Origin: a virus
Taxonomy: Duplodnaviria > Heunggongvirae > Uroviricota > Caudoviricetes
DNA: 13,493 nt
Direction: 5' to 3' (one strand)
Virus record (IMG/VR): IMGVR_UViG_2690316346_000006
Location: 1 to 13,493 of that record
Shown: positions 1 to 13,493 of the stretch, piece by piece
How the letters are laid out: each line of letters begins with the position of its first letter
Position numbering within the stretch: position 1 is the first letter of the stretch
Program-made: the position numbers and the translations under genes
Notes under the pieces: model-generated
The model's database searches: none
What the model saw: the letters and a program-made list of their open reading frames with translations, nothing else
Told to the model about the DNA's origin: nothing

Positions 1-51
1 ATCGGGCATTATCTGAACATAAAACACTATCAATAAGTTGGAGTCATTACC
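1..51 (+). mobile_element. IS1 terminal fragment (insB-proximal end including the terminal inverted repeat); body of the element lies upstream of the window
   Basis: Positions 1-51 are the exact reverse complement of 9926-9976 and 13443-13493, and match the remembered IS1 end ...CATCGGGCATTATCTGAACATAAAACACTATCAATAAGTTGGAGTCATTACC. Confidence 0.85.
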
Positions 52-183
52 AAACGGTTGAAATGTATGCCGCTACTTACGGGTCCTGTAATCCTCTGAA
101 TAAACCAGAGGGAAAAGATGATTTCGACAAAATTTACCGCTTCTTGGAGGACCGCTATATCAAAAGCTTAGAGGACGCAGGGA

Positions 184-561
184 TCAAATCCCCAGTGAAG
201 TCACCATTGTCCTGAGAACTTGCAGAACGTCATGATCATAACTTCCATCCAAACCGCGACGGCGAATTGCTTCTCGTATTACCGGAAGCAGTTCGCTGGA
301 AATCTCGGTGCATATTTCACCTGATAATACGCTTGGCTCAAGTGAGAATATTGGTGAACTTACGGTCTTGGTCTCGACAGTTTCAGAGTCAGTGCCAACA
401 TTATAAAGCTCAACGAAAGCGGTCTTGATTTTCCGGGCCAGATCTTTTGCTGGCTCGCTTGCAATATCTTTCCCGATTTCTCGCAGCACAGAATGCAATG
501 TATGAGCTGCTGTTTTCTGTACATCAGACGGTAAATCTTTAAATTCCATCGTCAGCCTCAT
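184..561 (-). CDS. hypothetical protein, 125 aa, second gene of a coupled two-gene operon
   Basis: ORF track. Its ATG (559-561) overlaps the stop of the upstream ORF (561-563) as ATGA on the minus strand. An alternative ATG at 547-549 has a GAGG 8 nt upstream. No recognisable motif. Confidence 0.5.
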   Translation of the reverse strand: MRLTMEFKDLPSDVQKTAAHTLHSVLREIGKDIASEPAKDLARKIKTAFVELYNVGTDSETVETKTVSSPIFSLEPSVLSGEICTEISSELLPVIREAIRRRGLDGSYDHDVLQVLRTMVTSLGI

Positions 562-767
562 CAGTCAGTGTTTCTGGCTAACCAGCAACGCGCGCCAGAT
601 TCGGTTTTAAACGTTTTGCTTTTGGTATACGTCATGGCGGTAAACGTTCCATCCTGGTTAGGGAACACGCCGCACACCAGAGATTCGTTGTTGCCAAGAT
701 CGATAGTATCCATGCTGACCTCATTTCCCCTTAACGCCGGGGTGGCGGAACAAAAAACCTGCTGCAT
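561..767 (-). CDS. small hypothetical protein (68 aa as listed; more likely about 50 aa from the internal ATG at 711-713)
   Basis: The internal ATG is preceded on the minus strand by TGAGGTcagcATG, a good Shine-Dalgarno; the listed start at 767 has none. Coupled via ATGA to the downstream ORF. Confidence 0.45.
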   Translation of the reverse strand: MQQVFCSATPALRGNEVSMDTIDLGNNESLVCGVFPNQDGTFTAMTYTKSKTFKTESGARCWLARNTD

Positions 768-953
768 AGTTAAAGATTGAACCCTGCCGTCATGTTCTTA
801 CGCCTCGGGCTGGCTACTTAACCCCTGACCACTGTCTGGTAACTCGAAGTATTGCCCTGCATTCTGTGGGGCGGGGTGGGTTGACGCCTGAAACAATAGC
901 ATCATTATTTTTTTTGATGTAAATAGCATCGCTATTGTTTTTTGTTGGGGCAA

Positions 954-976
954 GAAAAAACCACCCTAAGGTGGTT
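954..976 (-). terminator. rho-independent terminator for the minus-strand repressor/antitoxin/toxin transcript
   Basis: Plus strand reads aaaaaACCACCctaaGGTGGTT. On the minus strand this is a 7-bp stem with a 4-nt loop followed by a U-run, about 20 bp after the ParE-like stop at 993. Confidence 0.55.
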
Positions 977-992
977 CTGTCGGCGGGAATAA

Positions 993-1283
993 TTAACTGT
1001 TTTTGCCTGGATACTGTCTTCGAGAATGCACAATATTTACTACTTCTATGCTTGATGCTGTTACTCGGTAAAGGATGATGTAGTTAGGATGAGTTACAAT
1101 TTCACGAAGACCAAGAACTCGCTCGCTTGGAGGATACAGGTAAGGATGCTCTGTGAGCGGCAAAACGGATGTTTCAATTCGAATTTTCATTCTGCGTGCT
1201 GCCGCGGGATTTTCTTTAGCTATGTAGGCTACGATCTGGCGCAAATCATCACGAGCAGATGGTAGCCATAAAACGGGTAACAT
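993..1283 (-). CDS. parE: type II toxin, ParE/RelE superfamily
   Basis: 96 aa; sequence pattern (LPVLWLPSARDDL ... REIVTHPNYIILYRV ... VVNIVHSRRQYP) is typical of ParE-family toxins. Start overlaps the antitoxin stop (TAATG on the minus strand). Confidence 0.75.
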   Translation of the reverse strand: MLPVLWLPSARDDLRQIVAYIAKENPAAARRMKIRIETSVLPLTEHPYLYPPSERVLGLREIVTHPNYIILYRVTASSIEVVNIVHSRRQYPGKNS

Positions 1284-1477
1284 TATTCACCTCTGTGAGT
1301 TGCAGCAGCAATTTGGGCAATAATTTGTTCCATTTCCGCCATTACCTCATCATGCGGAATCGCCGGGCGGGGATCCGCGAGGCTTGCTGCTACTTTGGCC
1401 CGCAGCCATTCGTTGTAACTATTTTCTTGCTCAACTGTCTCAAATTCTGAAACCATTGGGGAAAGGACTGTACTCAT
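1283..1477 (-). CDS. paaA: small antitoxin, PaaA2-like, partner of the ParE-like toxin
   Basis: 64 aa, directly upstream of and overlapping the toxin gene. Segment SPMVSEFETVEQENSYNEWLRAKVAASLADPRPAIPHDEV matches my recollection of PaaA2 from the O157 paaR2-paaA2-parE2 system. AGGAGA lies 10 nt upstream of the ATG. Confidence 0.65.
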   Translation of the reverse strand: MSTVLSPMVSEFETVEQENSYNEWLRAKVAASLADPRPAIPHDEVMAEMEQIIAQIAAATHRGE

Positions 1478-1496
1478 TTTACATATCTCCTCTGAT

Positions 1497-1997
1497 TTAG
1501 GCGCGACGGCCTTTTTGTGCAGCTAACCACCGCGCAACCGTACGATCCATTGATTCTTTTTTATCTTTCATCTCCTGAAGCATGTGTTCTTGATCTTCTT
1601 TCGGAAAAGCTCTGAACGTATGGATTAAATCTCGTTCCATCGGCTCTACGGCAAACGGTAGTTCATCCTCTGTTTGTTCTGTGTCTGCTGGTAATGCGAC
1701 TATGTTATCTTGCTGTGGTTCTCGACAATACATCCTTGCAATTTGCAGCAAATCTACCATGTCTGGCCTGATTGACTCAGGGGGAACTTTCAGTAAGCCA
1801 GCAAACTTTAGAACAGCCTCAAGGTTTAGTGGGGTTTGACCATTTAGGTAGTGACTTACCGCCCCTTGTGTTGAAAACCCCATAATTTCCGCCGCACGTT
1901 CCTGAGTCAATCCCAACTGAGATTTCTTTGCCATCCAGATTTCTTTCAGTCTTCTGGCGGCGTTGAGGTCGGTGTCTGACAATGATTTTCTTTTCAT
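1497..1997 (-). CDS. cI-like HTH (XRE-family) repressor, probably PaaR2/RacR-like; ORF track extends to a GTG at 2027
   Basis: HTH motif region QLGLTQERAAEIMGFSTQGAVSHYLNG. Sits divergent to a Cro-like gene with a palindromic operator between them. The ATG at 1995-1997 (MKRKSL...) is favoured over the GTG at 2027, which has no Shine-Dalgarno. Confidence 0.7.
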   Translation of the reverse strand: MKRKSLSDTDLNAARRLKEIWMAKKSQLGLTQERAAEIMGFSTQGAVSHYLNGQTPLNLEAVLKFAGLLKVPPESIRPDMVDLLQIARMYCREPQQDNIVALPADTEQTEDELPFAVEPMERDLIHTFRAFPKEDQEHMLQEMKDKKESMDRTVARWLAAQKGRRA

Positions 1998-2027
1998 ACA
2001 TCCAATTCTAATAAGATTGCTAATCAC

Positions 2028-2108
2028 TTTGAAATAGTATCACTATTTACTTTTAAAAATAACAGTGCTATTAATTATGCATTGGTAACACATCACATAG
2101 GGCGGATT
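2028..2108. promoter_or_regulatory. divergent promoter/operator region between the repressor and the Cro-like gene; contains the palindrome AAATAGT-atc-ACTATTT (2032-2048)
   Basis: AT-rich 81-bp intergenic region between divergently oriented HTH genes. A perfect 7-bp inverted repeat with a 3-bp spacer is read directly from the sequence. Confidence 0.55.
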
Positions 2109-2372
2109 ATGAATCTTGGAGAATATTTGCATCATTTTCATATAACCCAGAGTTCATTTGCTGAGATTGTTGGCGCATCCCAAGGGATGGTCAGCCACGT
2201 TATAACGGGGCGTGCAAAACTTACAGGAGAAAAAATATTACGTTGGTGTGAAGCAACGGGATGGGTGGTGACCCCACATGAGATTGACAGTAAAACCTAC
2301 CCCAACCCAACTGACGGCTTGCCTGCTGAGTTTCAGGCTAACACACAACCATCGGCGGGGGTTGATTCATGA
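2109..2372 (+). CDS. ydaS: Cro-like HTH regulator (YdaS-like); ORF track start 2082, internal ATG at 2109 preferred
   Basis: HTH motif region ITQSSFAEIVGASQGMVSHVITG. Divergent from the repressor. GGGCGG lies 5 nt upstream of the ATG at 2109. Confidence 0.65.
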   Translation: MNLGEYLHHFHITQSSFAEIVGASQGMVSHVITGRAKLTGEKILRWCEATGWVVTPHEIDSKTYPNPTDGLPAEFQANTQPSAGVDS

Positions 2373-2794
2373 AAATCAAGCATGAACACATCCGCATGGC
2401 GATGAAAGCCTGGGCGCATCCGGACGGTGAAAAAGTTCCGGCAGCTGAAATAACCAGGGTTTATTTCGAACTGGGAATGACGTTTCCGGTTCTGCATAAC
2501 GACAGCAAGCACAACACGCTTTATCTCAACACCCAAAAGATTTTCCGTTGGCTGGATAAAGACACCCCTGACGCTGTTGAAAAAATTCAGGCGTTGTTAC
2601 CTGCGATCGAAAGGGCAATGCCACCTCCGCTGGTGGCTCGAATGCGCAGCCACAGTTCAGCTTATTTTCGGGAACTGGTGGAGACGCATGAACGACTGGT
2701 GAGAGACGCTGATGATTTTGTCGCAGTGGCAATCGCCGGTTTCAATCAGATGAACCGTGGTGGCCCGGCAGGAAATGCTGTGGCAGTACATTGA
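2369..2794 (+). CDS. ydaT: YdaT-like protein (proposed CII-like switch component in Rac-type prophages)
   Basis: 141 aa beginning MKIKHEH..., which matches my recollection of the YdaT N-terminus. Start overlaps the Cro-like stop (ATGA), indicating coupling. Confidence 0.5.
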   Translation: MKIKHEHIRMAMKAWAHPDGEKVPAAEITRVYFELGMTFPVLHNDSKHNTLYLNTQKIFRWLDKDTPDAVEKIQALLPAIERAMPPPLVARMRSHSSAYFRELVETHERLVRDADDFVAVAIAGFNQMNRGGPAGNAVAVH

Positions 2795-2865
2795 CTGACA
2801 ATAGCCATATCGAATCGCTCCCGGCAACTCGTGAGTAAAAAGATTCGGTATCAGAAGAGGTGAGT

Positions 2866-3930
2866 ATGGCTAACGCCTGGCTCAGATTATGGCATGACAT
2901 GCCAAATGACCCTAAGTGGCGAACAATTGCCAGGGTGTCAGGGCAGCCAATTGCAACAGTGATGGCAGTGTATATCCACCTCCTGGTGAGCGCGTCACGA
3001 AATGTCACGCGAGGTCACATTGATGTCACGACAGAAGATTTGGCAAGTGCGCTCGACGTGACAGAAGAGGTAATTGATTCAATTTTGCAGACGATGCAGG
3101 GGCGGGTACTTGATGGTGATTTAATCACTGGATGGGAAAAACGCCAGGTGCTTAAAGAGGACAACGGCAATATTTCGCAAACCGCAAAATCTCCTGCAGA
3201 GCGCAAGAGGGCGCAGCGAGAGAGGGAAAGAAAGCGGGAACAAAATGGCGATTGTCACGGCGCGTCACGAAATGTCACGCACATGTCACGACGAGTCACG
3301 ACAGATACAGATAAAGATACAGATAAAGAAGATCAAAACACTATGGTCCATGGCGTAAAAAACGCCACGAACCAGGCAGGGGATGTTCAGACCGTCAATC
3401 CTGGTCAGCCAGCAGGCTCGACACCGGAAGCCGATTCAGCGTATGCGCTGAAAGCCGATTCGGGCGCTGTGCAGCAGGTGATGACCGCAAGGCCGGAGCA
3501 ATCACTCCAACTGCAGCAGCCTGAAGCCGATTCCGCCATTCAGCGGGAAGCCGATCGGGTAGCCCCGGAAAACACCGGGCAGCCTGTGGGACGAGTGGAT
3601 TATCCGGATGTGTTCGAACAGGTCTGGCGGGAATACCCGTTGCGTGCCGGGGCAAACCCGAAGAAATCCGCATTCAGTGCCTGGAAGGCCAGATTGCGCG
3701 AGGGGGTGCCACCAGAGACCATGCTGGATGGTGTGAGGCGTTACGCGAGATACCTGGCGGCGACCGGGAAAGCGGGAACGGAATTTGTTCAGCGAGCGAC
3801 GACGTTTTTTGGGCCGGACCGGAATTTTGAAAACCCCTGGTTGCTCCCGGTAAGCGGCACGAACAACCAGCGTTGTGTGAATCATATTTCTGAACCGGAT
3901 ACCGAAATTCCGCCGGGATTCAGGGGGTGA
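2866..3930 (+). CDS. phage replication initiator 1 (O-like / YdaU-like), with origin iterons embedded in the coding sequence
   Basis: ATG at 2866 preceded by GAGGTG (track start GTG 2860). Lies immediately upstream of a DnaC-like gene. Contains two clusters of GTCACG direct repeats. C-terminus ends IPPGFRG, as in the second initiator. Confidence 0.7.
   Translation: MANAWLRLWHDMPNDPKWRTIARVSGQPIATVMAVYIHLLVSASRNVTRGHIDVTTEDLASALDVTEEVIDSILQTMQGRVLDGDLITGWEKRQVLKEDNGNISQTAKSPAERKRAQRERERKREQNGDCHGASRNVTHMSRRVTTDTDKDTDKEDQNTMVHGVKNATNQAGDVQTVNPGQPAGSTPEADSAYALKADSGAVQQVMTARPEQSLQLQQPEADSAIQREADRVAPENTGQPVGRVDYPDVFEQVWREYPLRAGANPKKSAFSAWKARLREGVPPETMLDGVRRYARYLAATGKAGTEFVQRATTFFGPDRNFENPWLLPVSGTNNQRCVNHISEPDTEIPPGFRG
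2993..3030 (+). repeat. iteron cluster 1 of putative origin 1: four GTCACG/GTCAC repeats at 10-11 bp spacing
   Basis: Repeats begin at 2993, 3003, 3014 and 3025, read directly from the sequence. Confidence 0.6.
3254..3300 (+). repeat. iteron cluster 2 of putative origin 1: five GTCACG repeats at 10-11 bp spacing, followed by an ACAGATA-rich AT-rich stretch
   Basis: Repeats begin at 3254, 3264, 3274, 3285 and 3295. The roughly 45-bp unit is near-identical to cluster 1. Confidence 0.6.
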
Positions 3931-3936
3931 TGTGGC

Positions 3937-4683
3937 ATGAAAAACATTGCGGCAGCCGGGGTTCTTGAACGTATTCACAGACTTGCACCACAGGGGGCGG
4001 TTCCACCGTACCGGACGGTGGAGGAGTGGCGGGAATGGCAACTTGCTGAAGGACGAAAACGCAGCGAGGAGATTAACCGCCAGAATCGCCAGTTGCGGGT
4101 GGAAAAAATCCTGAATCGTTCGGGCATCCAGCCTCTGCACAGCAAATGCTCGTTTGCGAATTATCAGGTGCAGAACGACGGGCAAAAATACGCGCTGAGC
4201 CAGGCCAAATCCATAGCTGACGAACTGATGACCGGGTGCACGAATTTTGTGTTCAGCGGTAAAACCGGCACCGGGAAAAATCACCTTGCAGCGGCGATGG
4301 GTAACCGGCTGATGGCGAAGGGGCGCAGCGTGATTATCGTCACCGAGTCTGATGTCATGAGCGTGTTGCATGACAGCTACGACAACGGCAAATCCGGTGA
4401 AAAATTTTTACAGGAGCTTTGCGGGGTTGATTTGCTGGTCCTGGATGAAATAGGCATTCAGCGGGAGACGAAAAACGAGCAGGTGGTATTGCACCAGATA
4501 ATTGATCGCCGGACAGCATCACTGTGCAGTGTCGGGATGTTAACAAACCTGAATCATGCCGCAATGAGCACGCTTCTTGGTGAGAGGATTATGGACCGCA
4601 TGACCATGAACGGTTGTCGGTGGGTGACGTTTAACTGGGATAGCTGGCGTTCAAATGTCAGCTTTCCGGGAGTTGTGAAGTAA
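3937..4683 (+). CDS. DnaC-like helicase loader (YdaV-like), copy 1
   Basis: 248 aa with Walker A-like SGKTGTGKNHLAAA and Walker B-like DLLVLDEIG, as in DnaC. Follows the initiator with 6-bp spacing. Confidence 0.85.
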   Translation: MKNIAAAGVLERIHRLAPQGAVPPYRTVEEWREWQLAEGRKRSEEINRQNRQLRVEKILNRSGIQPLHSKCSFANYQVQNDGQKYALSQAKSIADELMTGCTNFVFSGKTGTGKNHLAAAMGNRLMAKGRSVIIVTESDVMSVLHDSYDNGKSGEKFLQELCGVDLLVLDEIGIQRETKNEQVVLHQIIDRRTASLCSVGMLTNLNHAAMSTLLGERIMDRMTMNGCRWVTFNWDSWRSNVSFPGVVK

Positions 4684-4704
4684 TTTTTGTTGGAGGATGT
4701 TTTA

Positions 4705-5430
4705 ATGGAAACTGTATTTGACGCACTGAAAGCACTGAAAAGAGCCTCTTCACATGTGGTGGCGTCCCGCCTTGGAATCAGCCGTGAAGATGCGGTCAAC
4801 GAACTGTGGAAACTGAAGCGCCGTGGTGAAGCGGATAACAAGGGTTCGATGTGGTGGCTGATTCAGGCTGGTGAAAGTGAACCAGTGTCACCGGTACCGA
4901 AAGTGACAGCGCAAATGCTGACTGAGGCGATTGAACAACATGGCCCACAAACGGCGGATGAGCTGGCACTGATGTTCGGGATTACCTCCCGCCGGGCGAA
5001 TTCATCGCTGGCCATGGCAATCAGCAAAGGGCGTCTGATTCGCGTGAATCAGGGCGGTAAATTTCGGTACTGCATACCGGGCGCTGATTTACCGGCAGAG
5101 CCGAAAGCCGCATCCATAGCGGAAACGGATGGTAAAGTCTTTCCTCAGCCAGCAGGTGTTGCGTTACCGGTACAGGAAGCTGCAACACAGGAAGAAATTA
5201 AAACAGAAACTGTGGCGGACATTGTGCAGTCGTTGCCATCGTTCACCGAAACGCAAGCGGATGACCTGGTTTTACCATCGCTGCATATGGCAAACCGCGA
5301 ACTGCGTCGGGCGAAAAGTCATGTCCAGAAGTGGGAGCGTGTCTGCGCCGCGTTGCGGGAGCTGAACAAGCACCGGGATATTGTTCGACAGATTGTCGAT
5401 TCCTCCGGTCGTATTGTGTCGGAAAAGTGA
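4705..5430 (+). CDS. hypothetical protein, possibly YdaW-like; present only in module 1
   Basis: ORF track lists a TTG start at 4687; the ATG at 4705 has GGAGG 8 nt upstream. No catalytic motif recognised. Confidence 0.55.
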
Positions 5431-5445
5431 TTGCCGGGGGCGCTT

Positions 5446-5868
5446 ATGGCAAAAGTATTTACACAGGAAGAGCGGGAAAAAATTAAGGGGCAGGTTGTTG
5501 AACTCGTACGCCAGAGTGGGCGCGAGACGTTACGACAACTGGAAGCTAAAACCGGGGCGACAAGATATTTAATAAGCGTTCTCGCCAGAGAGCTGGTTGC
5601 CAGTGGGGATGTATACAACTCTGGCTACGGGTTATTCCCGTCTGAACAGGCTCGTAAGGACTGGCAAAACGCCCGCAAAAAACTCTCGAGGGCAAAGCTG
5701 AAGAAACCATCTGTGGTTGATCCGGACCTTATCTGGTCATTACCGGACGGAGAAATACGCCGCTACGACAGACATCAGAACATAATCTGTCGCGAGTGCC
5801 GGAAGAGTGAAGTTATGCAGCGTGTACCGGCTTTCTATCAGGGTGATTTTCAGGAGGCGGTACTGTGA
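5446..5868 (+). CDS. hypothetical protein (about 140 aa), paralog of 9117-9539
   Basis: ATG at 5446 preferred over the listed TTG at 5431. The C-terminal ~90 aa are near-identical to the 9117-9539 product; the N-terminal ~50 aa are diverged. Confidence 0.6.
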   Translation: MAKVFTQEEREKIKGQVVELVRQSGRETLRQLEAKTGATRYLISVLARELVASGDVYNSGYGLFPSEQARKDWQNARKKLSRAKLKKPSVVDPDLIWSLPDGEIRRYDRHQNIICRECRKSEVMQRVPAFYQGDFQEAVL

Positions 5869-6282
5869 GTGAAATTAGCTATCAGGCTTCAATTACCGCT
5901 GGCATTCGCATCAAAGGAGAGGAGCATGGAAATAAAACCAGAAGATGAGTTAAGCAATATTGTTTTATTTCCGGTAAAAGAGGATAACCCTCGTAATCAG
6001 GTTAATTTTCTTTATGAGCCATCGGAAAGACCATATTGCCATCACGCTTCTGTCCGGGTTGACGAAAAAGAGCGTCAGGTCCGCTGTAAAATCTGCGGTG
6101 CGGTTGTGGAGCCGTTTGACTGGATGCTCTCTGTGGCGAAAAGAGAAACCAGACTGGCAGATGATGTAAGGCTCTTGCGCCAGGAGGAGCGGGAAAGGCG
6201 AAAAAATATAGAAAAGCTAATCCAGATTGAGCGTAACGCGAAAGCGCGGATACGCAGGGCGACAAAATCCAGAACTGAATAA
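5869..6282 (+). CDS. hypothetical small protein with a putative zinc-ribbon motif (C-H-H ... C-x2-C); copy A
   Basis: Listed start is GTG at 5869. An internal ATG at 5926 has a strong Shine-Dalgarno (AAGGAGaggagcATG) and gives 118 aa. Motif YCHHASVRVDEKERQVRCKICG. Two further copies lie at 9540-9925 and 10695-11035. Confidence 0.6.
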   Translation: MKLAIRLQLPLAFASKERSMEIKPEDELSNIVLFPVKEDNPRNQVNFLYEPSERPYCHHASVRVDEKERQVRCKICGAVVEPFDWMLSVAKRETRLADDVRLLRQEERERRKNIEKLIQIERNAKARIRRATKSRTE

Positions 6283-6309
6283 TTAAATTTAGCACTGTTA
6301 AAAATTTAA
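6283..6309. repeat. AT-rich palindrome TTAAATTT-N11-AAATTTAA immediately after the stop of the zinc-ribbon gene; repeated at 11036-11062
   Basis: Read directly from the sequence; present after copies A and C, and homology between them ends just beyond it. Confidence 0.4.
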
Positions 6310-6421
6310 TCCTTAATAACCTTTTTATTCTTTGCCACGGGTTCCGTGGCGGGAGATTATGCCGCGTGAACATGAAGATGAGGTGTACTGGCAATAGCGG
6401 ACACTACCATTTGTTCTTTTT

Positions 6422-7240
6422 TTAAGCAGCCATCTGATGATATTTTTCCCTGAAGGCTGCCGGGGAGATATTCCCCAGACGAGAGTGACGACGCTGACGA
6501 TTGTAGAAAATCTCAATGTATTCCCGTATTACTGAGATGGCTTCATCCCGGTTATTAAAACGATAGTGGCTCAGGCTCTCATTTTTCAGCGTTCCCCAGA
6601 AGCTTTCCATCGGAGCGTTGTCGTAACAGTTACCTTTACGCGACATTGATGTTTTCAGACCAGACTGCTCCTGTATGACCCGGTAATCGTATGCGCAGTA
6701 CTGTGAACCTCGATCAGAGTGGTGGATTAGCCCGGCAGGTGGGCGCTGGCTCCTGAGCGCCATAAACAGGGCTTTACCTGTCAGCTCTTTTGTCATGCGC
6801 TCTCCCATGGCGTAGCCGACAATTTCGCACGTATAAACATCTTTGATGCCAGCGAGGTACAACCATCCCTCCTGTGTGGCAACATACGTCAGGTCCGCCA
6901 CCCAGACCTGATTTGGTGCTGTAGGAGCGAACGTCTGGTTCAGCAGATTTGGCGCAACTGGCAGATTGTGGTTCGAGTTCGTAGTCGCTCTGAACTTGCG
7001 TTTCTGCTTACAGCGTAGCCTTAGCTCCTTACGAAGACGTGCCAGTCGGTCACGACCAACGATGATGCCATTCTCTGCCAGCTCCGTCTGGAGCCGCCGG
7101 GTTCCATATGTTTCGCGAGTGCGGATATGTGCCACCTTAATCTCCAGTTTTAGCCGCTCATCACTTTGTTTTCTGTCTGAGGGTTCATGCTGTACCCAGT
7201 TGTAATAACCGCTCCTGGATACACCAAATACCTGACACAT
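6422..7240 (-). CDS. IS3-family transposase OrfB (DDE catalytic part), expressed as an OrfAB fusion by -1 frameshifting
   Basis: 272-aa ORF with DDE-type transposase signatures (HSDRGSQY ... conserved acidic residues) in the -1 frame relative to orfA. Confidence 0.8.
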   Translation of the reverse strand: MCQVFGVSRSGYYNWVQHEPSDRKQSDERLKLEIKVAHIRTRETYGTRRLQTELAENGIIVGRDRLARLRKELRLRCKQKRKFRATTNSNHNLPVAPNLLNQTFAPTAPNQVWVADLTYVATQEGWLYLAGIKDVYTCEIVGYAMGERMTKELTGKALFMALRSQRPPAGLIHHSDRGSQYCAYDYRVIQEQSGLKTSMSRKGNCYDNAPMESFWGTLKNESLSHYRFNNRDEAISVIREYIEIFYNRQRRHSRLGNISPAAFREKYHQMAA

Positions 7241-7275
7241 CGCTTCAATGGGAAATTGTTGTCGCCATTGTTCGA

Positions 7276-7578
7276 TTAACGCGTATTTTTCAGCGACTCC
7301 TGTGCAAAATACGCTGTTGCTTTTTTTAATATATCTCGCTCAAGGCGAGCTTCATTTAACGCCTTACGCAGTTGCAGAATTTCAGATTCCAGTTCAGCCA
7401 CCGTGCGGGAACCAGGAGTACCGAGCCCTTTTCTGGCGGCGGTAACCCATTGTCCTAAAGTGCCTTCAGGAAGAGATAATCGGGAAGCGCCTTCACTGAT
7501 CGAAAGTTGATTTTCAAGAACCGTTCTGACAGCTTCGGCTTTGAACTCTTTAGAGTAACGTTGGGTTTTTCTGCTCAT
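7276..7578 (-). CDS. IS3-family transposase OrfA (HTH part)
   Basis: 100 aa, MSRKTQRYSKEFKAEAVRTV..., which I recognise as IS600/IS3-group OrfA. Confidence 0.8.
   Translation of the reverse strand: MSRKTQRYSKEFKAEAVRTVLENQLSISEGASRLSLPEGTLGQWVTAARKGLGTPGSRTVAELESEILQLRKALNEARLERDILKKATAYFAQESLKNTR
7320..7327 (-). promoter_or_regulatory. programmed -1 ribosomal frameshift site (A AAA AAG) within the orfA/orfB overlap of the IS3-family element
   Basis: Minus-strand sequence TTAAAAAAAGC lies where orfA and orfB overlap, as is typical of IS3-family elements. Confidence 0.6.
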
Positions 7579-7698
7579 TATTAGCTCCTTCTGATGCCAT
7601 TCTATTTCAGGAAGGAGTGTCCGTTAAACTCAGGCTACCTCAGGTTATTCGCTTCTGGGCATGGGCGGATCAACAAATGATAGACGGTAATGCAGATT

Positions 7699-7950
7699 GT
7701 AACGCTCGCGGCGTTACAAAAAGTGCAATAGATCGCATCACTTTTATGTCTGGTTTTGCTGATGCGTTAATTCAGGTTGGATGGCTGGTCGAAAATGACG
7801 GAGGGCTTTCTCTACCTAACTTTGAACGTCATAACGGAAAAAGCTCTAAAAAAAACGGGCGGTTACAAACGAGCGAGTAACAAAAATACGCGAACTGAAA
7901 CGAAAAGGTAACGCTGCCAGCGTTACACAAACGGATCAAAAAGCGTTACC
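7699..7950 (+). repeat. putative origin 2 binding sites: two copies of the palindrome GTAACGC-N5-GCGTTAC (7699-7717, 7908-7926) plus half-sites at 7862-7866 and 7943-7949
   Basis: Read directly from the sequence. Located inside the linker-coding region of initiator 2, analogous to the iterons inside initiator 1 but of a different sequence. Confidence 0.45.
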
Positions 7951-7952
7951 AG

Positions 7953-8000
7953 AGGAAGAGGAAGAGGAAGAGGAAGAGGAAGAGGAAGAGGAAGAGGAAG
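7953..8000 (+). repeat. perfect tandem hexanucleotide repeat (AGGAAG)8; encodes Glu16 in the frame that appears to be coding for the initiator 2 linker
   Basis: 48 bp of uninterrupted AGGAAG units counted directly from the sequence. Confidence 0.9.
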
Positions 8001-8355
8001 ATCTAAATACTGATCTCCCCCTCGCCAAAAACGAGCGTCTAAAAAATTCGAGCCGGAGGCTATTGAGCTGCCCGATTGGTTGCCGGAAACACTCTGGCAT
8101 GAGTGGGTCCGGTTCAGACAGGCATTGCGAAAACCGATTCGAACGGAGCAGGGCGCTAACGGGGCGATACGGGAACTGGAAAAATTCCGTCAGCAGGGTT
8201 TTACACCTGAGCAGGTGATTCGACACAGCATCGCCAATGAATACCAGGGCCTGTTCGCGCCGAAAGGTGTTCGGCCTGAGACGTTGCTCCGACAGGTTAA
8301 CACCGTCTCGTTGCCGGACAGTGCGATCCCGCCAGGCTTCAGGGGGTAACGGACC

Positions 8356-9102
8356 ATGAAAAATATTGCGACAGGCGGCGTTCTGGAACGCATCCGCCGA
8401 CTGACCCCGCCACATGTAACCGCCCCATTCAGAACGGTAGCGGAGTGGCGCGAGTGGCAACTTGCTGAAGGCCAGAAACGTAGCGAGGAGATCAACCGCC
8501 TGAATCGCCAGTTGCGGGTGGAAAAAATTCTGAATCGCTCAGGCATCCAGCCGTTGCACCGTAAATGCTCGTTTGCGAATTACCAGGTGCAGAACGACGG
8601 CCAGCGATACGCGTTAAGCCAGGCGAAATCCATCGCCGATGAACTGATGACCGGGTGTACAAATTTTGCGTTCAGCGGAAAACCTGGTACCGGGAAGAAT
8701 CACTTAGCGGCAGCTATCGGGAATCGCCTGCTGAAAGACGGTCAGACAGTGATTGTGGTTACCGTGGCTGATGTTATGAGCGCCCTGCACGCCAGCTATG
8801 ACGACGGGCAGTCAGGCGAAAAATTTTTGCGGGAGCTGTGCGAAGTGGATCTGCTGGTTCTTGATGAAATTGGCATTCAGCGCGAGACGAAAAACGAGCA
8901 GGTGGTGCTGCACCAGATTGTTGATCGCCGGACAGCGTCGATGCGCAGCGTGGGGATGCTGACAAACCTGAACTATGAGGTGATGAAAACATTGCTCGGC
9001 GAGCGGGTGATGGATCGCATGGTCATGAACGGCGGGCGCTGGGTGAATTTTAACTGGGAGAGCTGGCGTCCGAATGTTAGCCATTCGAGGGTTGTTAAGT
9101 AG
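8356..9102 (+). CDS. DnaC-like helicase loader, copy 2 (roughly 85% amino-acid identity to copy 1 by eye)
   Basis: 248 aa with SGKPGTGKNHLAAA and DLLVLDEIG motifs; same length and architecture as 3937-4683. Confidence 0.85.
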   Translation: MKNIATGGVLERIRRLTPPHVTAPFRTVAEWREWQLAEGQKRSEEINRLNRQLRVEKILNRSGIQPLHRKCSFANYQVQNDGQRYALSQAKSIADELMTGCTNFAFSGKPGTGKNHLAAAIGNRLLKDGQTVIVVTVADVMSALHASYDDGQSGEKFLRELCEVDLLVLDEIGIQRETKNEQVVLHQIVDRRTASMRSVGMLTNLNYEVMKTLLGERVMDRMVMNGGRWVNFNWESWRPNVSHSRVVK

Positions 9103-9116
9103 TTTCAGGAGGATTT

Positions 9117-9539
9117 ATGGCGAAACCTTTTACTCCCGAACAGCGGGAAGAACTGAAGACGCGAATTGTGGAACTCGTGCATCAGGACGGTCGGGTCACG
9201 ATTCGGCAGTTGTCAGATGAAACAGGTATCAGTCGTGCGTCTGTCGGTCGCTTATGCATAGAACTGGTCGCAAGTGGTGATGTATATAATTCTGGCTACG
9301 GCTTATTCCCGTCTGAACAGGCTCGCAAGGACTGGCAAAGCGCCCGCAAAAAACTCTCGAGAGTAAAGGTGAGGAAACCGGTTGTTGTTGATCCGGACCT
9401 TATCTGGTCATTACCTGACGGAGAAATACGCCGCTACGACAGGCGCCTGAATATAATCTGTCGCGAGTGCCGGAAGAGCGAAGCTATGCAGCGTGTACTG
9501 GCTTTCTATCAGGGTAATTTTCAGGAGGCGATACTGTGA
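9117..9539 (+). CDS. hypothetical protein, paralog of 5446-5868 with a diverged N-terminus
   Basis: 140 aa; C-terminal region (ELVASGDVYNSGYGLFPSEQARKDWQ ... IICRECRKSE ...) nearly identical to copy 1. Confidence 0.6.
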   Translation: MAKPFTPEQREELKTRIVELVHQDGRVTIRQLSDETGISRASVGRLCIELVASGDVYNSGYGLFPSEQARKDWQSARKKLSRVKVRKPVVVDPDLIWSLPDGEIRRYDRRLNIICRECRKSEAMQRVLAFYQGNFQEAIL

Positions 9540-10007
9540 ATGAAATTAGCTATCAGGCTTCAATTACCGCTGGCATTCGCATCAAAGGAGAGGAGCATGG
9601 AAATAAAACCAGAAGATGAGTTAAGCAATATTGTTTTATTTCCGGTAAAAGAGGATAACCCACGTAATCAGGTTAATTTTCTTTATGAACCATCGGAAAG
9701 ACCATATTGCCATCACGCCTCTGTCCGGGTTGACGAAAAAGAGCGTCAGGTCCGCTGTAAAATTTGCGGTGCAGTTGTGGAGCCATTTGACTGGATGCTC
9801 TCTGTGGCGAAAAGAGAAACCAGACTGGCAGATGATGTAAGGCTATTGCGCCAGGAGGAACAGGAAAGGCGGAGAAATATAGAAAAGCTGATACAGATTG
9901 AGCGTAACGCGAAAGCGCGGATACGCGGTAATGACTCCAACTTATTGATAGTGTTTTATGTTCAGATAATGCCCGATGACTTTGTCATGCAGCTCCACCG
10001 ATTTTGA
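9540..10007 (+). pseudogene. zinc-ribbon small gene copy B, 3'-truncated at 9925 by IS1; the ORF reads on into IS1, giving a chimeric 26-aa tail
   Basis: Homology to copy A ends exactly at the IS1 end (...gcgcggatacgc|ggtaatgac). Translation continues ...ARIR then [26 protein letters not shown] from the IS1 sequence. Confidence 0.7.
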
Positions 10008-10445
10008 GAACGACAGCGACTTCCGTCCCAGCCGTGCCAGGTGCTGCCTCAGATTCAGGTTATGCCGCTCAATTCGCTGCGTATATCGCTTGCTGATTAC
10101 GTGCAGCTTTCCCTTCAGGCGGGATTCATACAGCGGCCAGCCATCCGTCATCCATATCACCACGTCAAAGGGTGACAGCAGGCTCATAAGACGCCCCAGC
10201 GTCGCCATAGTGCGTTCACCGAATACGTGCGCAACAACCGTCTTCCGGAGACTGTCATACGCGTAAAACAGCCAGCGCTGGCGCGATTTAGCCCCGACAT
10301 AGCCCCACTGTTCGTCCATTTCCGCGCAGACGATGACGTCACTGCCCGGCTGTATGCGCGAGGTTACCGACTGCGGCCTGAGTTTTTTAAGTGACGTAAA
10401 ATCGTGTTGAGGCCAACGCCCATAATGCGTGCAGTTGCCCGGCAT
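9942..10445 (-). CDS. insB: IS1 InsB (expressed as an InsAB' fusion by frameshifting)
   Basis: 167 aa, ...[62 protein letters not shown]..., recognised as IS1 InsB. Confidence 0.9.
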
Positions 10446-10639
10446 CCAACGCCATTCATGGCCATATCAATGATTTTCTGGTGCGTACCGGGTTGAGAAG
10501 CGGTGTAAGTGAACTGCAGTTGCCATGTTTTACGGCAGTGAGAGCAGAGATAGCGCTGATGTCCGGCAGTGCTTTTGCCGTTACGCACCACCCCGTCAGT
10601 AGCTGAACAGGAGGGACAGCTGATAGAAACAGAAGCCAC
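10364..10639 (-). CDS. insA: IS1 InsA
   Basis: 91 aa, [42 protein letters not shown]..., recognised as IS1 InsA. Confidence 0.9.
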
Positions 10640-10694
10640 TGGAGCACCTCAAAAACACCATCATACACTAAATCAGTAAGTTGGCAGCATCACC

Positions 10695-11035
10695 AAGATG
10701 AGTTAAGCAATATCGTTTTATTTCCGGTAAAAGAGGATGACCCTCGTAATCAGGTTAATTTTCTTTATGAGCCATCGGAAAGACCATATTGCCATCACGC
10801 CTCTGTACGGGTTGACGAAAAAGAGCGTCAGGTCCGCTGTAAAATCTGCGGTGCGGTTGTGGAGCCGTTTGACTGGATGCTCTCTGTGGCAAAAAGAGAA
10901 ACCAGACTGGCAGATGATGTAAGGCTATTGCGCCAGGAGGAACAGGAAAGGCGGAGAAATATAGAAAAGCTGATACAGATTGAGCGTAACGCGAAAGCGC
11001 GGATACGCAGGGCGACAAAATCCAGAACTGAATAA
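10695..11035 (+). pseudogene. zinc-ribbon small gene copy C, 5'-truncated (lacks the first ~5 codons); mosaic of copies A and B
   Basis: Begins abruptly at the IS1 end with aagatgagttaagc..., matching codon 6 onward of copy A. Its 5' half carries copy-A-type variants and its 3' half copy-B-type variants. Stop at 11033-11035. Confidence 0.65.
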
Positions 11036-11104
11036 TTAAATTTAGCACTGTTAAAAATTTAATCCTTAACCGGAGGGATTTCTGCACCCTCAAATCATCA
11101 GGAG

Positions 11105-11122
11105 ACCGCCCGAAAGGGCGGT
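11105..11122 (+). other. stable GC-rich hairpin with a GAAA tetraloop (ACCGCCC-gaaa-GGGCGGT), 5 nt upstream of the ATG at 11128
   Basis: Read directly from the sequence. No U-run follows, so it is not a canonical terminator; it could occlude a ribosome-binding region or stabilise an mRNA. Confidence 0.4.
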
Positions 11123-11127
11123 AATGA

Positions 11128-11346
11128 ATGGTTACATTATTTAGAAAAAAATATCCGCGAAAGAGTAGAACAACAGAATTCCTGTTTCTCATTCTGTTTA
11201 TCGTGTTGATGACACCGATATCCCCGCTAATTTTTGTCTGGATAATCGGAAAAATAATTGAGCCAGTTATTGAATTGTATAACGACGTGGTATGGGCGTC
11301 ATTCAACACACTGCACAATAAAATTAATCCGTATAAGGAAAGCTGA
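11128..11346 (+). CDS. small hydrophobic (probably membrane) protein, 72 aa
   Basis: ORF track; hydrophobic core FLFLILFIVLMTPISPLIFVWIIG. No clear Shine-Dalgarno, so the call is tentative. Confidence 0.35.
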   Translation: MVTLFRKKYPRKSRTTEFLFLILFIVLMTPISPLIFVWIIGKIIEPVIELYNDVVWASFNTLHNKINPYKES

Positions 11347-11713
11347 TATGGCACTGACGAAAAAACAACGTGCAGAACTGCGCATGAAGTTCGGTGGTCG
11401 CTGCGCTTATTGCGGCTGCGAACTTGGCGAAAAGTGGCATGCAGACCATGTAAAACCGGTCATTCGTTTTGATGGAAATATGCTTCACCAGGAACGTGAC
11501 GATATATCCAACATGGTACCAGCATGCCACCCATGCAATCTGCACAAGCATTGCAGTAGCCTGGAAGATTATCGACGAATTATCAGTGATGGTCGTCGTG
11601 AATTCCTTGCGTCCGGGAAAGGCAAAGCGCTGGTTCGTATGGGATTGGTTGAAATGAAATCTGACCCGGTTGTGTTCTGGTTTGAAAAATATCAAGAAGG
11701 GGCTACGGCATGA
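11347..11713 (+). CDS. HNH endonuclease
   Basis: ATG at 11347 with AAGGAAA upstream (ORF track extends to 11258). Motifs CAYCGC ... HADH ... N ... ACHPCNLHKH are typical of HNH nucleases. Confidence 0.75.
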
Positions 11714-12375
11714 CCACTATTACCAAAGAGCGACTGCAATGGCTGGCTAACATTTCTGGCCGCGATGATATTGACGATATAGACGGCGGTGAAATTCGTG
11801 AACTGGCGCTTATCGCTCTGGCATCACTGGAAGCAGAGCCTGTAGCGGAATGCATTGTTGAAGATGGGGGCATGTGTATTGACGGGTTCGGTGAGTATGT
11901 GGGTCACTCGCTGCCTGATGGAATGCATGAGCTTTATGCTGCCCCGCGAATGCGACAACCTGATGGATGGAAAGCCGTAGCTGTAGCGTGGAAGGTGACG
12001 TTTACTCAAGTTGACCAGGAATCTAATACGTTCACTGCTATATATTTTGACAAAGCGGAAGTTGAGTGTTGGGTACGACTGCATAAAGCATGTGATTTTC
12101 GGGCAGATATAACACCGCTTTACGCAGCGCCGGCAGTGCCGGTTGCAGTAAACGACGACATGGCTTACGCATTCCATCACGCACTGTCAGATTCATCGCT
12201 TGGCTCTGATGAAATCGAAGAAATTAAAACCGGTTTGCGTGCTGCCTTTGCCAACGTCACTATCCAACCAGAGCCGATAGTGCCGGATGAAATCGGGCCA
12301 AACGATAGTAATACGTTTGATTATGTTGATGGCTGGAACGCCTGCCGCGCTGCCATGCTTAAGGGAGATAAATAA
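11710..12375 (+). CDS. hypothetical phage protein, 221 aa, acidic
   Basis: ORF track; start overlaps the HNH stop (ATGA). No motif recognised. Confidence 0.6.
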   Translation: MTTITKERLQWLANISGRDDIDDIDGGEIRELALIALASLEAEPVAECIVEDGGMCIDGFGEYVGHSLPDGMHELYAAPRMRQPDGWKAVAVAWKVTFTQVDQESNTFTAIYFDKAEVECWVRLHKACDFRADITPLYAAPAVPVAVNDDMAYAFHHALSDSSLGSDEIEEIKTGLRAAFANVTIQPEPIVPDEIGPNDSNTFDYVDGWNACRAAMLKGDK

Positions 12376-12740
12376 TGATTAATCGAACCAAACTGGAGCA
12401 CATTCTCGAATATGCCAGGCAGCAGAAATGTATTGGGCAACTTTGTAAAATTCCACCAGGAGATATGGTTGAAATCGTGGAAATGGCCATGCGTAAGGCT
12501 GGCAACTCTCCGGTAGCTCCGGCTGGCTGGATAAGCTGTAGTGATGCAGTTCCTGCTGAATATTGCGATGTGATTCTTCTCGATGATCTCGGGAATGTAT
12601 TCCCCGGTTCCTGGGATAAGGTTTTTTGCCCCACTCGTGGCGGGAATAAGATGGCTTTTGTGGACAAAGACGGCGTTGAAGTAGAGAGCTCAACTCACTG
12701 GATGCCGCTACCGGAACCACCGCAGGAGGTGAATCAATGA
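12375..12740 (+). CDS. hypothetical phage protein with a DUF551-like C-terminus
   Basis: 121 aa; WISCSDAVP ... THWMPLPEPP resembles the DUF551 signature as I recall it. Confidence 0.6.
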   Translation: MINRTKLEHILEYARQQKCIGQLCKIPPGDMVEIVEMAMRKAGNSPVAPAGWISCSDAVPAEYCDVILLDDLGNVFPGSWDKVFCPTRGGNKMAFVDKDGVEVESSTHWMPLPEPPQEVNQ

Positions 12741-12820
12741 CCTGGCCTGAGGCATTCACCACGGTAGGAATTGCGATGGCGGTGGCGCTGGTGGTGTATT
12801 CGATTTGCCGTTGGGGTTAA
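12737..12820 (+). CDS. unlisted small ORF, 27 aa (MTWPEAFTTVGIAMAVALVVYSICRWG), predicted single transmembrane helix
   Basis: Perfect Shine-Dalgarno AGGAGGTGA 6 nt upstream of the ATG at 12737. Start overlaps the upstream stop (ATGA). A rho-independent terminator follows immediately. Below the length cut-off of the ORF track. Confidence 0.5.
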   Translation: MTWPEAFTTVGIAMAVALVVYSICRWG

Positions 12821-12825
12821 CAAAC

Positions 12826-12857
12826 AAAAACCCCGGATTGATGGTCCGGGGTTTTTG
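12826..12857 (+). terminator. rho-independent terminator (AAAAA-CCCCGGA-ttgatgg-TCCGGGG-TTTTT), potentially bidirectional
   Basis: 7-bp GC-rich stem, 7-nt loop and a T5 run, read directly from the sequence; 6 bp after the stop of the small ORF. Confidence 0.8.
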
Positions 12858-13195
12858 AAGGAAACAAAACAGAAACAGCAATTGCCGTTACCTGTTGTTA
12901 CCATGGCAAGTAAACGTATCTCAGGCGAGCGCATTGCGCCGTTCTGACGCAGATAAACTAGCCTGGATAGATGGTGCTGGCAATAAAAAATAGCGTTTTC
13001 TTATCGGTGTCGGTAAGATTGCTGCGGGTGCTTGAGGCTGTCTGCCTCGGGTATGTCACTGTAAGGCAGACAGAGAAAAGCCCCAGTTAACATTACGCGT
13101 CCTGCAAGACGCTTAACATTAATCTGAGGCCCAATCTATGTCTCACAAATGTAGGTTAGCCTCTTACGTGCCGAAAGGCAAGGAGAAGCAGGCTA

Positions 13196-13350
13196 TGAAG
13201 CAGCAAAAGGCGATGTTAATCGCCCTGATCGTCATCTGTTTAACCGTCATTGTGACGGCACTGGTAACGAGGAAAGACCTCTGCGAGGTACGAATCCGAA
13301 TCGGCCAGACGGAGGTCGCTGTTTTCGTAGACTACGAATCTAGAGAGTAA
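13196..13350 (+). CDS. hok: Hok/Gef-family type I toxin (closest by memory to HokD/RelF or HokC)
   Basis: MKQQKAMLIALIVICLTVIVTALVTRKDLCEVRIRIGQTEVAVFVDYESRE; AAGGAG lies 9 nt upstream of the ATG at 13196. The ORF track extends in frame to an ATG at 13138. Confidence 0.85.
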
Positions 13351-13442
13351 GAGTGACCAGGCGGGAGAGTAATCTCCCGCCACCTTTGATGTGTCAGGCA
13401 TCCTCAACGCACCCGCACTTAACCCGTTTCGGCGGTTTTTTT

Positions 13443-13493
13443 GGTAATGACTCCAACTTATTGATAGTGTTTTATGTTCAGATAATGCCCGAT
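13443..13493 (-). mobile_element. IS1 terminal fragment (insB-proximal end), element in minus orientation with its body downstream of the window
   Basis: Identical to 9926-9976 and the exact reverse complement of 1-51. Confidence 0.85.

Follow-up and report, generated by a model that had tools for sequence, protein, structure and literature searches.

Does a short stretch of phage DNA in which related replication genes occur two and a half times over describe a tandem array within one prophage, or did its parts come together in another way? The window, that is, the whole 13,493-bp stretch of DNA analysed here, is the entire contig CXEQ01000138.1 of a draft Shigella sonnei assembly (GCA_001258815.1). 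In the Rac-type lambdoid prophages of Escherichia coli, the replication region has the gene order ydaS–ydaT–ydaU–ydaV–ydaW, and we take the modules of the window to be of this type, in keeping with RefSeq product names; its matches in E. coli genomes are annotated as ydaV, ydaT and DUF977. An earlier note, made from the DNA letters, proposed that a single prophage carries the array together with two co-resident initiator/loader sets. Our comparison with closed genomes indicates that the repeats and their paralogy are genuine, that their tandem adjacency most likely is not, and that the window is probably chimeric, a product of scaffolding or gap filling in a short-read draft.

The contig is bounded by a 54-nt perfect inverted repeat, and each end breaks off 51 nt into IS1, the pattern expected for a short-read contig. 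Positions 1–51 (plus strand) are the final 51 nt, with the IRR end, of an IS1 that continues to the left of the contig; they form a perfect inverted repeat with 13443–13493 and 9927–9977, and agree with the IS1 that flanks the A locus (the home of the leftmost segment) in closed genomes. Positions 13443–13493 (minus strand), the inverted repeat of 1–51, are the first 51 nt, again with the IRR end, of a copy lying rightward, and this junction is also present in closed genomes. Such inverted ends are what a 13.4-kb IS1-bounded composite transposon with the replication modules as cargo would have, but the outer junctions are ordinary junctions of two different closed-genome loci, no second copy of the IS1-to-IS1 unit was found, and the unit is absent from closed genomes. 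We therefore rejected this reading, which we regard as extremely improbable. No complete E. coli genome held at least 80% of the window.

Self-BLAST of the window established how far the copies resemble each other. The DnaC-like loader regions (3907–4686 and 8326–9105) share 78.4% nucleotide identity; their relationship as paralogues holds, at 80.6% protein identity rather than the approximately 85% previously estimated. The following regions (5586–6255 and 9257–9926) share 93.6%, and three zinc-ribbon copies are confirmed, at 96.8% between 5942–6316 and 10695–11069 and 97.1% between 9613–9926 and 10695–11008. The two DUF977 proteins agree at 24 of 46 N-terminal residues and 81 of the remaining 94, as anticipated from their diverged N termini and near-identical C termini. 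Loader, DUF977 and zinc-ribbon genes come back in unchanged order and orientation, which speaks for a tandem array; the initiator is not repeated.

Segment A (52–6236, plus strand) is a complete early and replication region with 99.9% identity to the A locus of closed S. sonnei genomes (L012–L016), where it adjoins ydfI/ynfEFGH-like genes. It contains DUF1391 and ParE/PaaA2 genes (Pfam, PHROG and NCBIfam matches for the segment), a repressor (1497–1997, minus strand), a cro-like gene (2109–2372), YdaT (2369–2794), an initiator (2866–3930; PHROG 3729), a DnaC-like loader (3937–4683; PRK12377, 499 bits), a DUF1627 gene (4705–5430), a DUF977 gene (5446–5868) and zinc-ribbon copy A (5926–6282). 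An intact initiator next to an intact DnaC-like loader, as in a Rac-type replication module, occurs in this segment only.

At its right end, segment A departs from its chromosomal counterpart. By allele comparison, the 3′ end of copy A and the DNA downstream (6237–6316, plus strand) are of the B/C-locus type, not the A-locus type: positions 6240–6316 are 100% identical to the loci of the other two segments, B and C, whereas the A locus of closed genomes aligns with 6240–6286 only, at 85%. The adjacency of 6222 and 6237 occurs in none of the reference loci, and in closed genomes the A locus runs on into a methyltransferase and endonuclease pair. The following 62 bp (6317–6378, plus strand) match E. 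coli genomes as core chromosome from the yiaD–bisC intergenic region. Of 5426 E. coli genomes, 5421 matched a 67-nt query (6312–6378) a single time, with 4186 records at 99% identity or more and, among the matches listed, full cover at 100%.

The passage from prophage to core lies at an 11-bp microhomology (TTAATCCTTAA; 6306–6316) that occurs both in the prophage and in the DNA upstream of yiaD. This junction was found in no complete E. coli genome, and exact-pattern scans for it and for the core–IS600 junction returned nothing from the species-representative genomes, among which S. sonnei probably has none. The IS600 orfB locations listed for S. sonnei comprise ten other IS600 sites, with yiaD not among them; that listing also revealed a fourth DUF977 fragment, with no fourth zinc-ribbon copy there. 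The supplements of PMC5320598 and PMC7373316 list neither the assembly nor an IS600 site at yiaD/bisC, and a literature search on the accession yielded nothing relevant. By default, GapFiller closes a gap once the overlap between the two extensions reaches 10 nt (PMC3446322), a rule that the 11-bp overlap satisfies.

The second initiator had been placed from position 6359 onwards, but 6359–6378 belong to the core intergenic DNA and 6379–7642 (minus strand) are an IS600 of the IS3 family. This element has the expected 1264 bp, TG...CA ends, orfA (7276–7578) and orfB (6422–7240) with an rve domain (Pfam rve, HTH_21 and HTH_Tnp_1; NCBIfam transpos_IS3); it is 99.8–100% identical to the IS600 copies of closed genomes, and the E. 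coli matches of the region coincide with features annotated as IS600. No 3-bp target-site duplication is present in the window, where AGA on the left faces GGT on the right. The element with this right junction in closed genomes is flanked by GGT on either side, as a simple insertion inside B's own initiator. The earlier note had overlooked this element, the internal IS1, both IS1 ends of the window and the 62-bp core insert.

Segment B begins with a dead initiator (7643–8349, plus strand), which matches PHROG 2509 positions 34–102 and 193–277 in two frames. IS600 has removed its 5′ part, and the remnant has a frameshift in a poly-A run and a variable (AGAGGA)n tract; an intact 262-aa version is found in a relative (L003). 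Between the intact B-type initiator of a closed genome and the module 1 initiator, only a C-terminal tail (13 of 19 residues) and a weak 24% N-terminal match were detected; the two initiators are of different kinds. The idea of two co-resident initiator/loader sets thus fails, because the second initiator is an IS600-truncated, frameshifted pseudogene; with only one initiator/loader pair intact, a new replication mechanism is not implied. The B loader (8356–9102, plus strand; NCBIfam PRK12377, 510 bits; Pfam IstB_IS21) is intact, and the exact protein is found at a modABC-adjacent locus in closed S. sonnei genomes. It is followed by a DUF977 gene (9117–9539, plus strand; Pfam PF06163) with 75% amino acid identity to the A copy and by zinc-ribbon copy B (9597–9926, plus strand), which IS1 cuts at nucleotide 330 of 357; its closed-genome counterpart is intact. 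The B::IS1 fusion open reading frame matched no record in the version with an upstream start (155 aa), and when read from the ATG at 9597 it had a match in this contig alone.

The internal IS1 (9927–10694, minus strand) is 768 bp long, with terminal inverted repeats, ends GGTAATGACTCC... and ...GGCAGCATCACC, insA (10364–10639) and insB (9942–10445) (NCBIfam transpos_IS1; Pfam Zn_ribbon_InsA and DDE_Tnp_IS1), and is 100% identical to IS1 copies in L013. It lacks an 8–10-bp target-site duplication (flanks GCGGATACGC versus AAGATGAGTT), whereas its right junction in closed genomes carries a 9–10-bp duplication, AAGATGAGT(T); the copy in the window is thus a join and not a simple insertion.

Segment C starts at this IS1 with zinc-ribbon copy C, which by alignment lacks the ribosome-binding site and the first 16 nt (10695–11035, plus strand). 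The remainder (11036–13442, plus strand) carries DUF4014, HNH, a 221-aa protein, DUF551 and sok/hok (sok with an Rfam match of 118 bits), at 99.9% identity to L024–L031. Closed genomes have the same IS1–copy C junction at their ttcA (Rac-site) locus, as a simple insertion; the sequence truly to its left there, a 138-bp stub, is a paralogue of the end of segment B, a resemblance that offers a concrete route for mis-linked read pairs. A look-up of the truncated copy-C product matched short draft contigs only.

The chromosomal positions of the three segments bear directly on their adjacency. In CP104423.1, exact marker proteins place C at ~1.984 Mb (plus strand), A at ~2.204 Mb (minus strand) and B at ~3.090 Mb (plus strand); A and B likewise occupy separate loci in CP146292.2, as do A and C in CBDDMI010000001.1. 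The segments lie 0.2–0.9 Mb apart in closed genomes, and the order A–IS600–B–IS1–C occurs in none of those examined. The window thus combines segments from distant loci of the same clone's closed genomes, with breakpoints at repeats, as a chimeric contig would. Contiguous copies with no foreign DNA between them, reproducible in independent assemblies, as a tandem duplication would give, were not found.

It is accordingly very improbable that one prophage acquired two and a half modules by duplication, with later conversion or recombination, and kept two working initiator/loader sets. IS600 and IS1, both devoid of target duplications, and core DNA separate the units; the second initiator is a broken remnant of another kind; each unit has its near-identical counterpart at a chromosomal locus of its own in closed genomes; and intact relatives (L003, L033 and L034) have one module each. 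The view that no single recent duplication produced the copies stands, given 78–97% identity by segment and three loci, but their assignment to one prophage does not. The comparisons support derivation of the copies from different, related Rac-type lambdoid prophages, in line with the kinship suggested earlier, and in closed genomes they sit at three separate loci.

The zinc-ribbon copies had also been read as evidence of recombination, with copy C a mosaic. In the within-window alignment, copy C does match A at five of six informative sites up to column 300 and then B at seven of seven, but it carries the allele that closed genomes have at their B locus; the appearance of a mosaic stems from the atypical alleles of the contig's A and B copies. 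Outside the zinc-ribbon copies, the window differs from closed genomes about once per 6 kb, whereas inside them the differences number 5, 9 and 3, and the allele combinations of these copies occurred nowhere else among the sequences searched; the nine mismatches between copy B and the closed-genome B locus all lie in 9632–9809, and at six variable sites alleles are simply swapped between copies. Among the S. sonnei contigs of the collection searched, this one alone has the copy-A protein allele, and the copy-B allele had no match among 2153 E. coli copies (best 97.7%). A fourth prophage as the source of the copy-B allele was considered and found no support, as no copy exceeded 97.7% in 5426 E. 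coli genomes and none was present in the fetched S. sonnei loci.

At k=21, reference loci tile the whole window save five adjacencies, each of which falls at an IS end, at the microhomology or within the zinc-ribbon repeat. The allele adjacencies 6114/6138, 6222/6237 and 9657/9662 are spaced more closely than a 30-mer, and k-mer extension alone, starting from copies like those of the reference, would not produce them; accounting for them takes real variant reads or else an artefact of consensus calling or bubble merging.

These adjacencies, which suggest that real reads carry them, speak for a correct contig, in which IS600–IS600 and IS1–IS1 recombination, a new IS1 insertion in a zinc-ribbon gene, a microhomology deletion next to yiaD and gene conversion among the zinc-ribbon copies would have united the remnants. 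Both internal elements lack target duplications, as IS–IS recombination predicts, closed genomes show genuine rearrangement at the same B-locus IS600 (L005) and deletions at the A locus (L017), and strain-specific IS sites occur in 75% of S. sonnei genomes (PMC7373316). However, at least four or five independent events would be needed, and all of them would have to centre on a single repeated gene of 360 bp, in a lineage that elsewhere differs by only ~1 SNP per 6 kb; a direct IS1–IS1 join of B to C would, in the reference arrangement, delete or duplicate ~1.1 Mb. Moreover, the allele swaps are reciprocal at six sites, which gene conversion does not yield, and no other assembly shares the junction reading frame or the A allele. 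We consider a correct contig unlikely, though far from negligible.

Assembly error, a caveat that the earlier note itself had raised, is the most likely explanation of the adjacency. S. sonnei carries a number of related Rac-type prophages decayed by IS elements, and every one of them has a DnaC-like loader, a DUF977 gene and a zinc-ribbon gene of its own. Scaffolding and gap filling probably joined sequences across IS600 and IS1, both multi-copy, and across the near-identical zinc-ribbon repeat, so that in the window the early/replication region of remnant A is followed by 80 bp of zinc-ribbon 3′ flank of the B/C type, then 62 bp of yiaD–bisC DNA, IS600, the 3′ part of remnant B, IS1 and a piece of remnant C. 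For 299 public S. sonnei assemblies, the Velvet, SSPACE and GapFiller pipeline of Sanger was used, which according to the authors can introduce false joins (PMC5320598); from its accession style, GCA_001258815.1 appears to be a product of an SSPACE/GapFiller pipeline.

Either reading, chimera or IS rearrangement, is already known biology. If the order were true, it would be another case of the well-documented IS-mediated reshuffling of defective lambdoid prophages, and the contig a snapshot of IS elements reshuffling and homogenizing such prophages in a 13-kb IS-bounded block. If it is not, the locus cautions that in IS-rich genomes such as those of Shigella, draft contigs running through IS elements and near-identical prophage genes can fabricate unusual-looking gene orders.

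Compared with a Rac-type region, the window has the same succession of repressor, cro-like gene, YdaT, initiator, DnaC-like loader (PRK12377/IstB_IS21), DUF1627, DUF977 and small zinc-ribbon gene, but it contains fragments of three such regions, with module A alone complete. IS1 and IS600 are among the five expanded IS of Shigella, and each chromosome carries 229–348 IS insertions (Hawkey et al. 2020, PMC7373316). Prophage remnants cut by IS1 and IS600 fit this IS-driven decay and rearrangement; the particular order of the window was seen in no closed genome examined. The likeness to SSPACE/GapFiller false joins (PMC5320598 and PMC3446322) lies in joins placed exactly at multi-copy IS and a near-identical repeat, between segments from distant loci; the window differs in that some allele adjacencies are too close for simple 30-mer extension, and the pipeline is here deduced.

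The repeats described in the earlier note are borne out by ORF listing, repeat finding and self-BLAST of the window. By self-BLAST, the loader regions (3907–4686 versus 8326–9105) are 78.4% identical in nucleotides, and 5586–6255 and 9257–9926 are 93.6% identical. The DnaC-like loader proteins (encoded at 3937–4683 and 8356–9102) share 80.6% identity, and the zinc-ribbon gene occurs in three copies in the window at 96–97% identity. The two DUF977 proteins have 24 of their first 46 residues in common and 81 of the remaining 94, in keeping with the divergent N termini and near-identical C termini reported for them.

An exact-protein look-up identified the window as the entire contig CXEQ01000138.1 of the draft assembly GCA_001258815.1. 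Proteins identical to the loaders of segments A and B and to one segment C protein are encoded by many closed Shigella sonnei chromosomes, at a different locus for each protein. In CP104423.1, segment C lies at about 1.984 Mb on the plus strand, next to ttcA (the Rac site), segment A at about 2.204 Mb on the minus strand, next to ydfI and ynfEFGH-like genes, and segment B at about 3.090 Mb on the plus strand, next to modABC. Separate loci are also present in CP146292.2 (A and B) and CBDDMI010000001.1 (A and C). S. sonnei carries several related, IS-decayed Rac-type prophages, and the paralogy within the window is real and ordinary, whereas the tandem adjacency of the replication modules is doubtful. 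Intact relatives (L003, L033 and L034, loci from other genomes) have one module apiece, and none of 5,426 complete E. coli genomes holds 80% of the window; we regard a single-prophage tandem array as highly improbable.

BLAST against the reference loci assigned 1–6268 to locus A (99.9% identity), 6379–9926 to locus B and 9927–13493 to locus C, with two source switches between A and IS600. The sequence from about 6237 to 6316 is identical to B/C-type sequence, and its alignment to the reference A locus is confined to 6240–6286, at 85%. Positions 6317–6378 are the core-chromosome yiaD–bisC intergenic region, and a 67-nt query (6312–6378) has one match per genome in 5,421 of 5,426 E. coli genomes. 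Prophage and core sequence meet at an 11-bp microhomology, TTAATCCTTAA (6306–6316), and the core side of the core–IS600 junction (6378/6379) reads ...CATGAAGA. The prophage–core, core–IS600 and zinc-ribbon–IS1 junctions are absent from all complete E. coli genomes searched. K-mer tiling (k = 21) agrees with this assignment, as the reference loci cover the whole window save five adjacencies (6222..6237, 6305..6317, 6377..6380, 9657..9662 and 9926..9927).

The closed genomes show what flanks each segment at its own locus. At the A locus (L012–L016, about 12561–15472), an Eco57I-like N6-methyltransferase (610 aa), a BsuBI/PstI-family endonuclease and then IS1 come after the zinc-ribbon gene; the window lacks this restriction-modification pair. 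The B locus has its own repressor, cro and YdaT genes left of IS600, and an intact zinc-ribbon gene followed by QueH. At the C locus, the left IS1 is a simple insertion into the zinc-ribbon gene with a 9–10-bp duplication, and a 138-bp stub between IS600 and IS1 (L024–L030, 8080–8217) comprises the DUF977 3′ end and the start of the zinc-ribbon gene, 128 of its 138 positions being identical to each of the two window copies. Another prophage remnant of S. sonnei (CBDDMI010000001.1, 1.819–1.826 Mb) has a fourth DUF977 fragment (L044, 2194–2599), which is flanked by IS1 and IS600, is about 90% identical to copy A and has no zinc-ribbon copy beside it.

The earlier note overlooked the IS elements. 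The window contains a complete IS600 (1,264 bp, 6379–7642, minus strand) and a complete IS1 (768 bp, 9927–10694, minus strand, with insA and insB both on that strand). Neither has a target-site duplication: IS600 lies between AGA and GGT, and IS1 between GCGGATACGC and AAGATGAGTT. A 51-nt IS1 end is present at both window ends and at 9927–9977. The contig ends (1–54 and 13440–13493) form a perfect 54-nt inverted repeat, consisting of this IS1 end plus AAA/TTT. An IS1 composite transposon would be a reading of such ends, to which we give very little credence. The equal depth to which the contig enters IS1 at its left and right ends may reflect the k-mer size of the assembler.

Differences between the window and the closed genomes number about one base per 6 kb outside the zinc-ribbon genes, against 5, 9 and 3 sites within copies A (5926–6282), B (9597–9926) and C (10695–11035), respectively. 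In a site table, each window allele has a counterpart in some reference zinc-ribbon copy, and alleles are swapped between copies at six sites. Copy C is the reference B allele. Copy B mixes alleles of A, C and B type, and copy A contains a B/C patch besides ending in B/C-type sequence. The appearance of copy C as a 5′-A-like, 3′-B-like mosaic therefore stems from the odd copies A and B. No other S. sonnei contig yielded the copy-A protein, even though 5,390 blocks record the loader of A. For the copy-B allele, the best of 2,153 copies in E. coli reaches 97.7%.

Together, these observations make it probable that CXEQ01000138.1 is a chimeric contig. Four features point this way: the passage of the contig through two highly repeated IS elements, the change of source inside a near-identical repeat, the 62 bp of a fourth locus attached via an 11-bp overlap, and the unique, partly reciprocal allele shuffles. 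The end of segment B has a paralog in the 138-bp stub flanking the true IS1–C junction, which gives read pairs a route from B through IS1 to C. S. sonnei chromosomes carry hundreds of copies of IS1, IS600 and other IS elements (PMC7373316). A total of 299 public S. sonnei assemblies come from the Sanger Velvet, SSPACE and GapFiller pipeline, whose authors state that false joins can result from its greedy procedure (PMC5320598), and we infer that the present assembly was made in this way. For GapFiller, an overlap of 10 nt or more between the two extensions is enough to close a gap (PMC3446322), and the 11-bp junction at 6306–6316 is long enough for this. A genuine, strain-specific IS-mediated rearrangement is the main alternative, though a less likely one: three novel allele adjacencies are spaced by less than a 30-mer and would not arise by simple k-mer extension from reference-like copies. 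Real rearrangements also exist in closed or near-closed genomes, at the B-locus IS600 (L005, about 8054; CP146292.2), which has a different left flank, and in locus A, where a deletion begins in the A loader and reaches the methyltransferase (L017, 10747–11146; VFAD01000001.1).

The second initiator ascribed to module 2 does not exist as such: position 6359, given as its start, falls within foreign DNA, after which comes IS600. The sole initiator-like sequence of this module (7643–8349) matches PHROG 2509 positions 34–102 and 193–277 in two frames, and in closed genomes the IS600 of B lies within the B initiator gene with a GGT duplication. L003 has an intact 262-aa B-type initiator, from which the window departs in the length of a poly-A run. 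This run (near 7841–7849) and an (AGAGGA)x8.5 array (7951–8001) in the dead initiator are both length-variable among S. sonnei genomes, the array being two units longer than in L002 and one longer than in L007. Apart from a tail at the C terminus in which 13 of 19 residues agree (...IPPGFRG), the intact initiator of B type resembles the 354-aa initiator of module 1 (PHROG 3729) only through a weak N-terminal match (24%). With the B remnant in two frames and cut by IS600, the window has one intact initiator/loader pair, that of A, rather than the two claimed, and only one intact replication module. Within the module A initiator gene (2866–3930), short tandem repeats (TGTCACGACA x5 and AGATACAGATAA x2.2) occupy 3253–3329, and self-BLAST pairs a 46-nt repeat at 2990–3035 with 3260–3305; these repeats could be candidate iterons of an in-gene origin.

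Pfam matches identify a ParE-family toxin gene (993–1283, minus strand) and a PaaA2-family antitoxin gene (1283–1477, minus strand) beside the A repressor. At the right end of C, within 13026–13350, a sok antisense RNA (Rfam RF01794, 118 bits) overlaps a hok toxin ORF (13195–13350). The value of the window is as an example of the seemingly unusual gene orders that draft assemblies of IS-rich genomes can produce, and it is otherwise of low interest; under any reading, all of its components are known, namely Rac-type replication genes, IS1, IS600, hok/sok and a ParE/PaaA2 pair.
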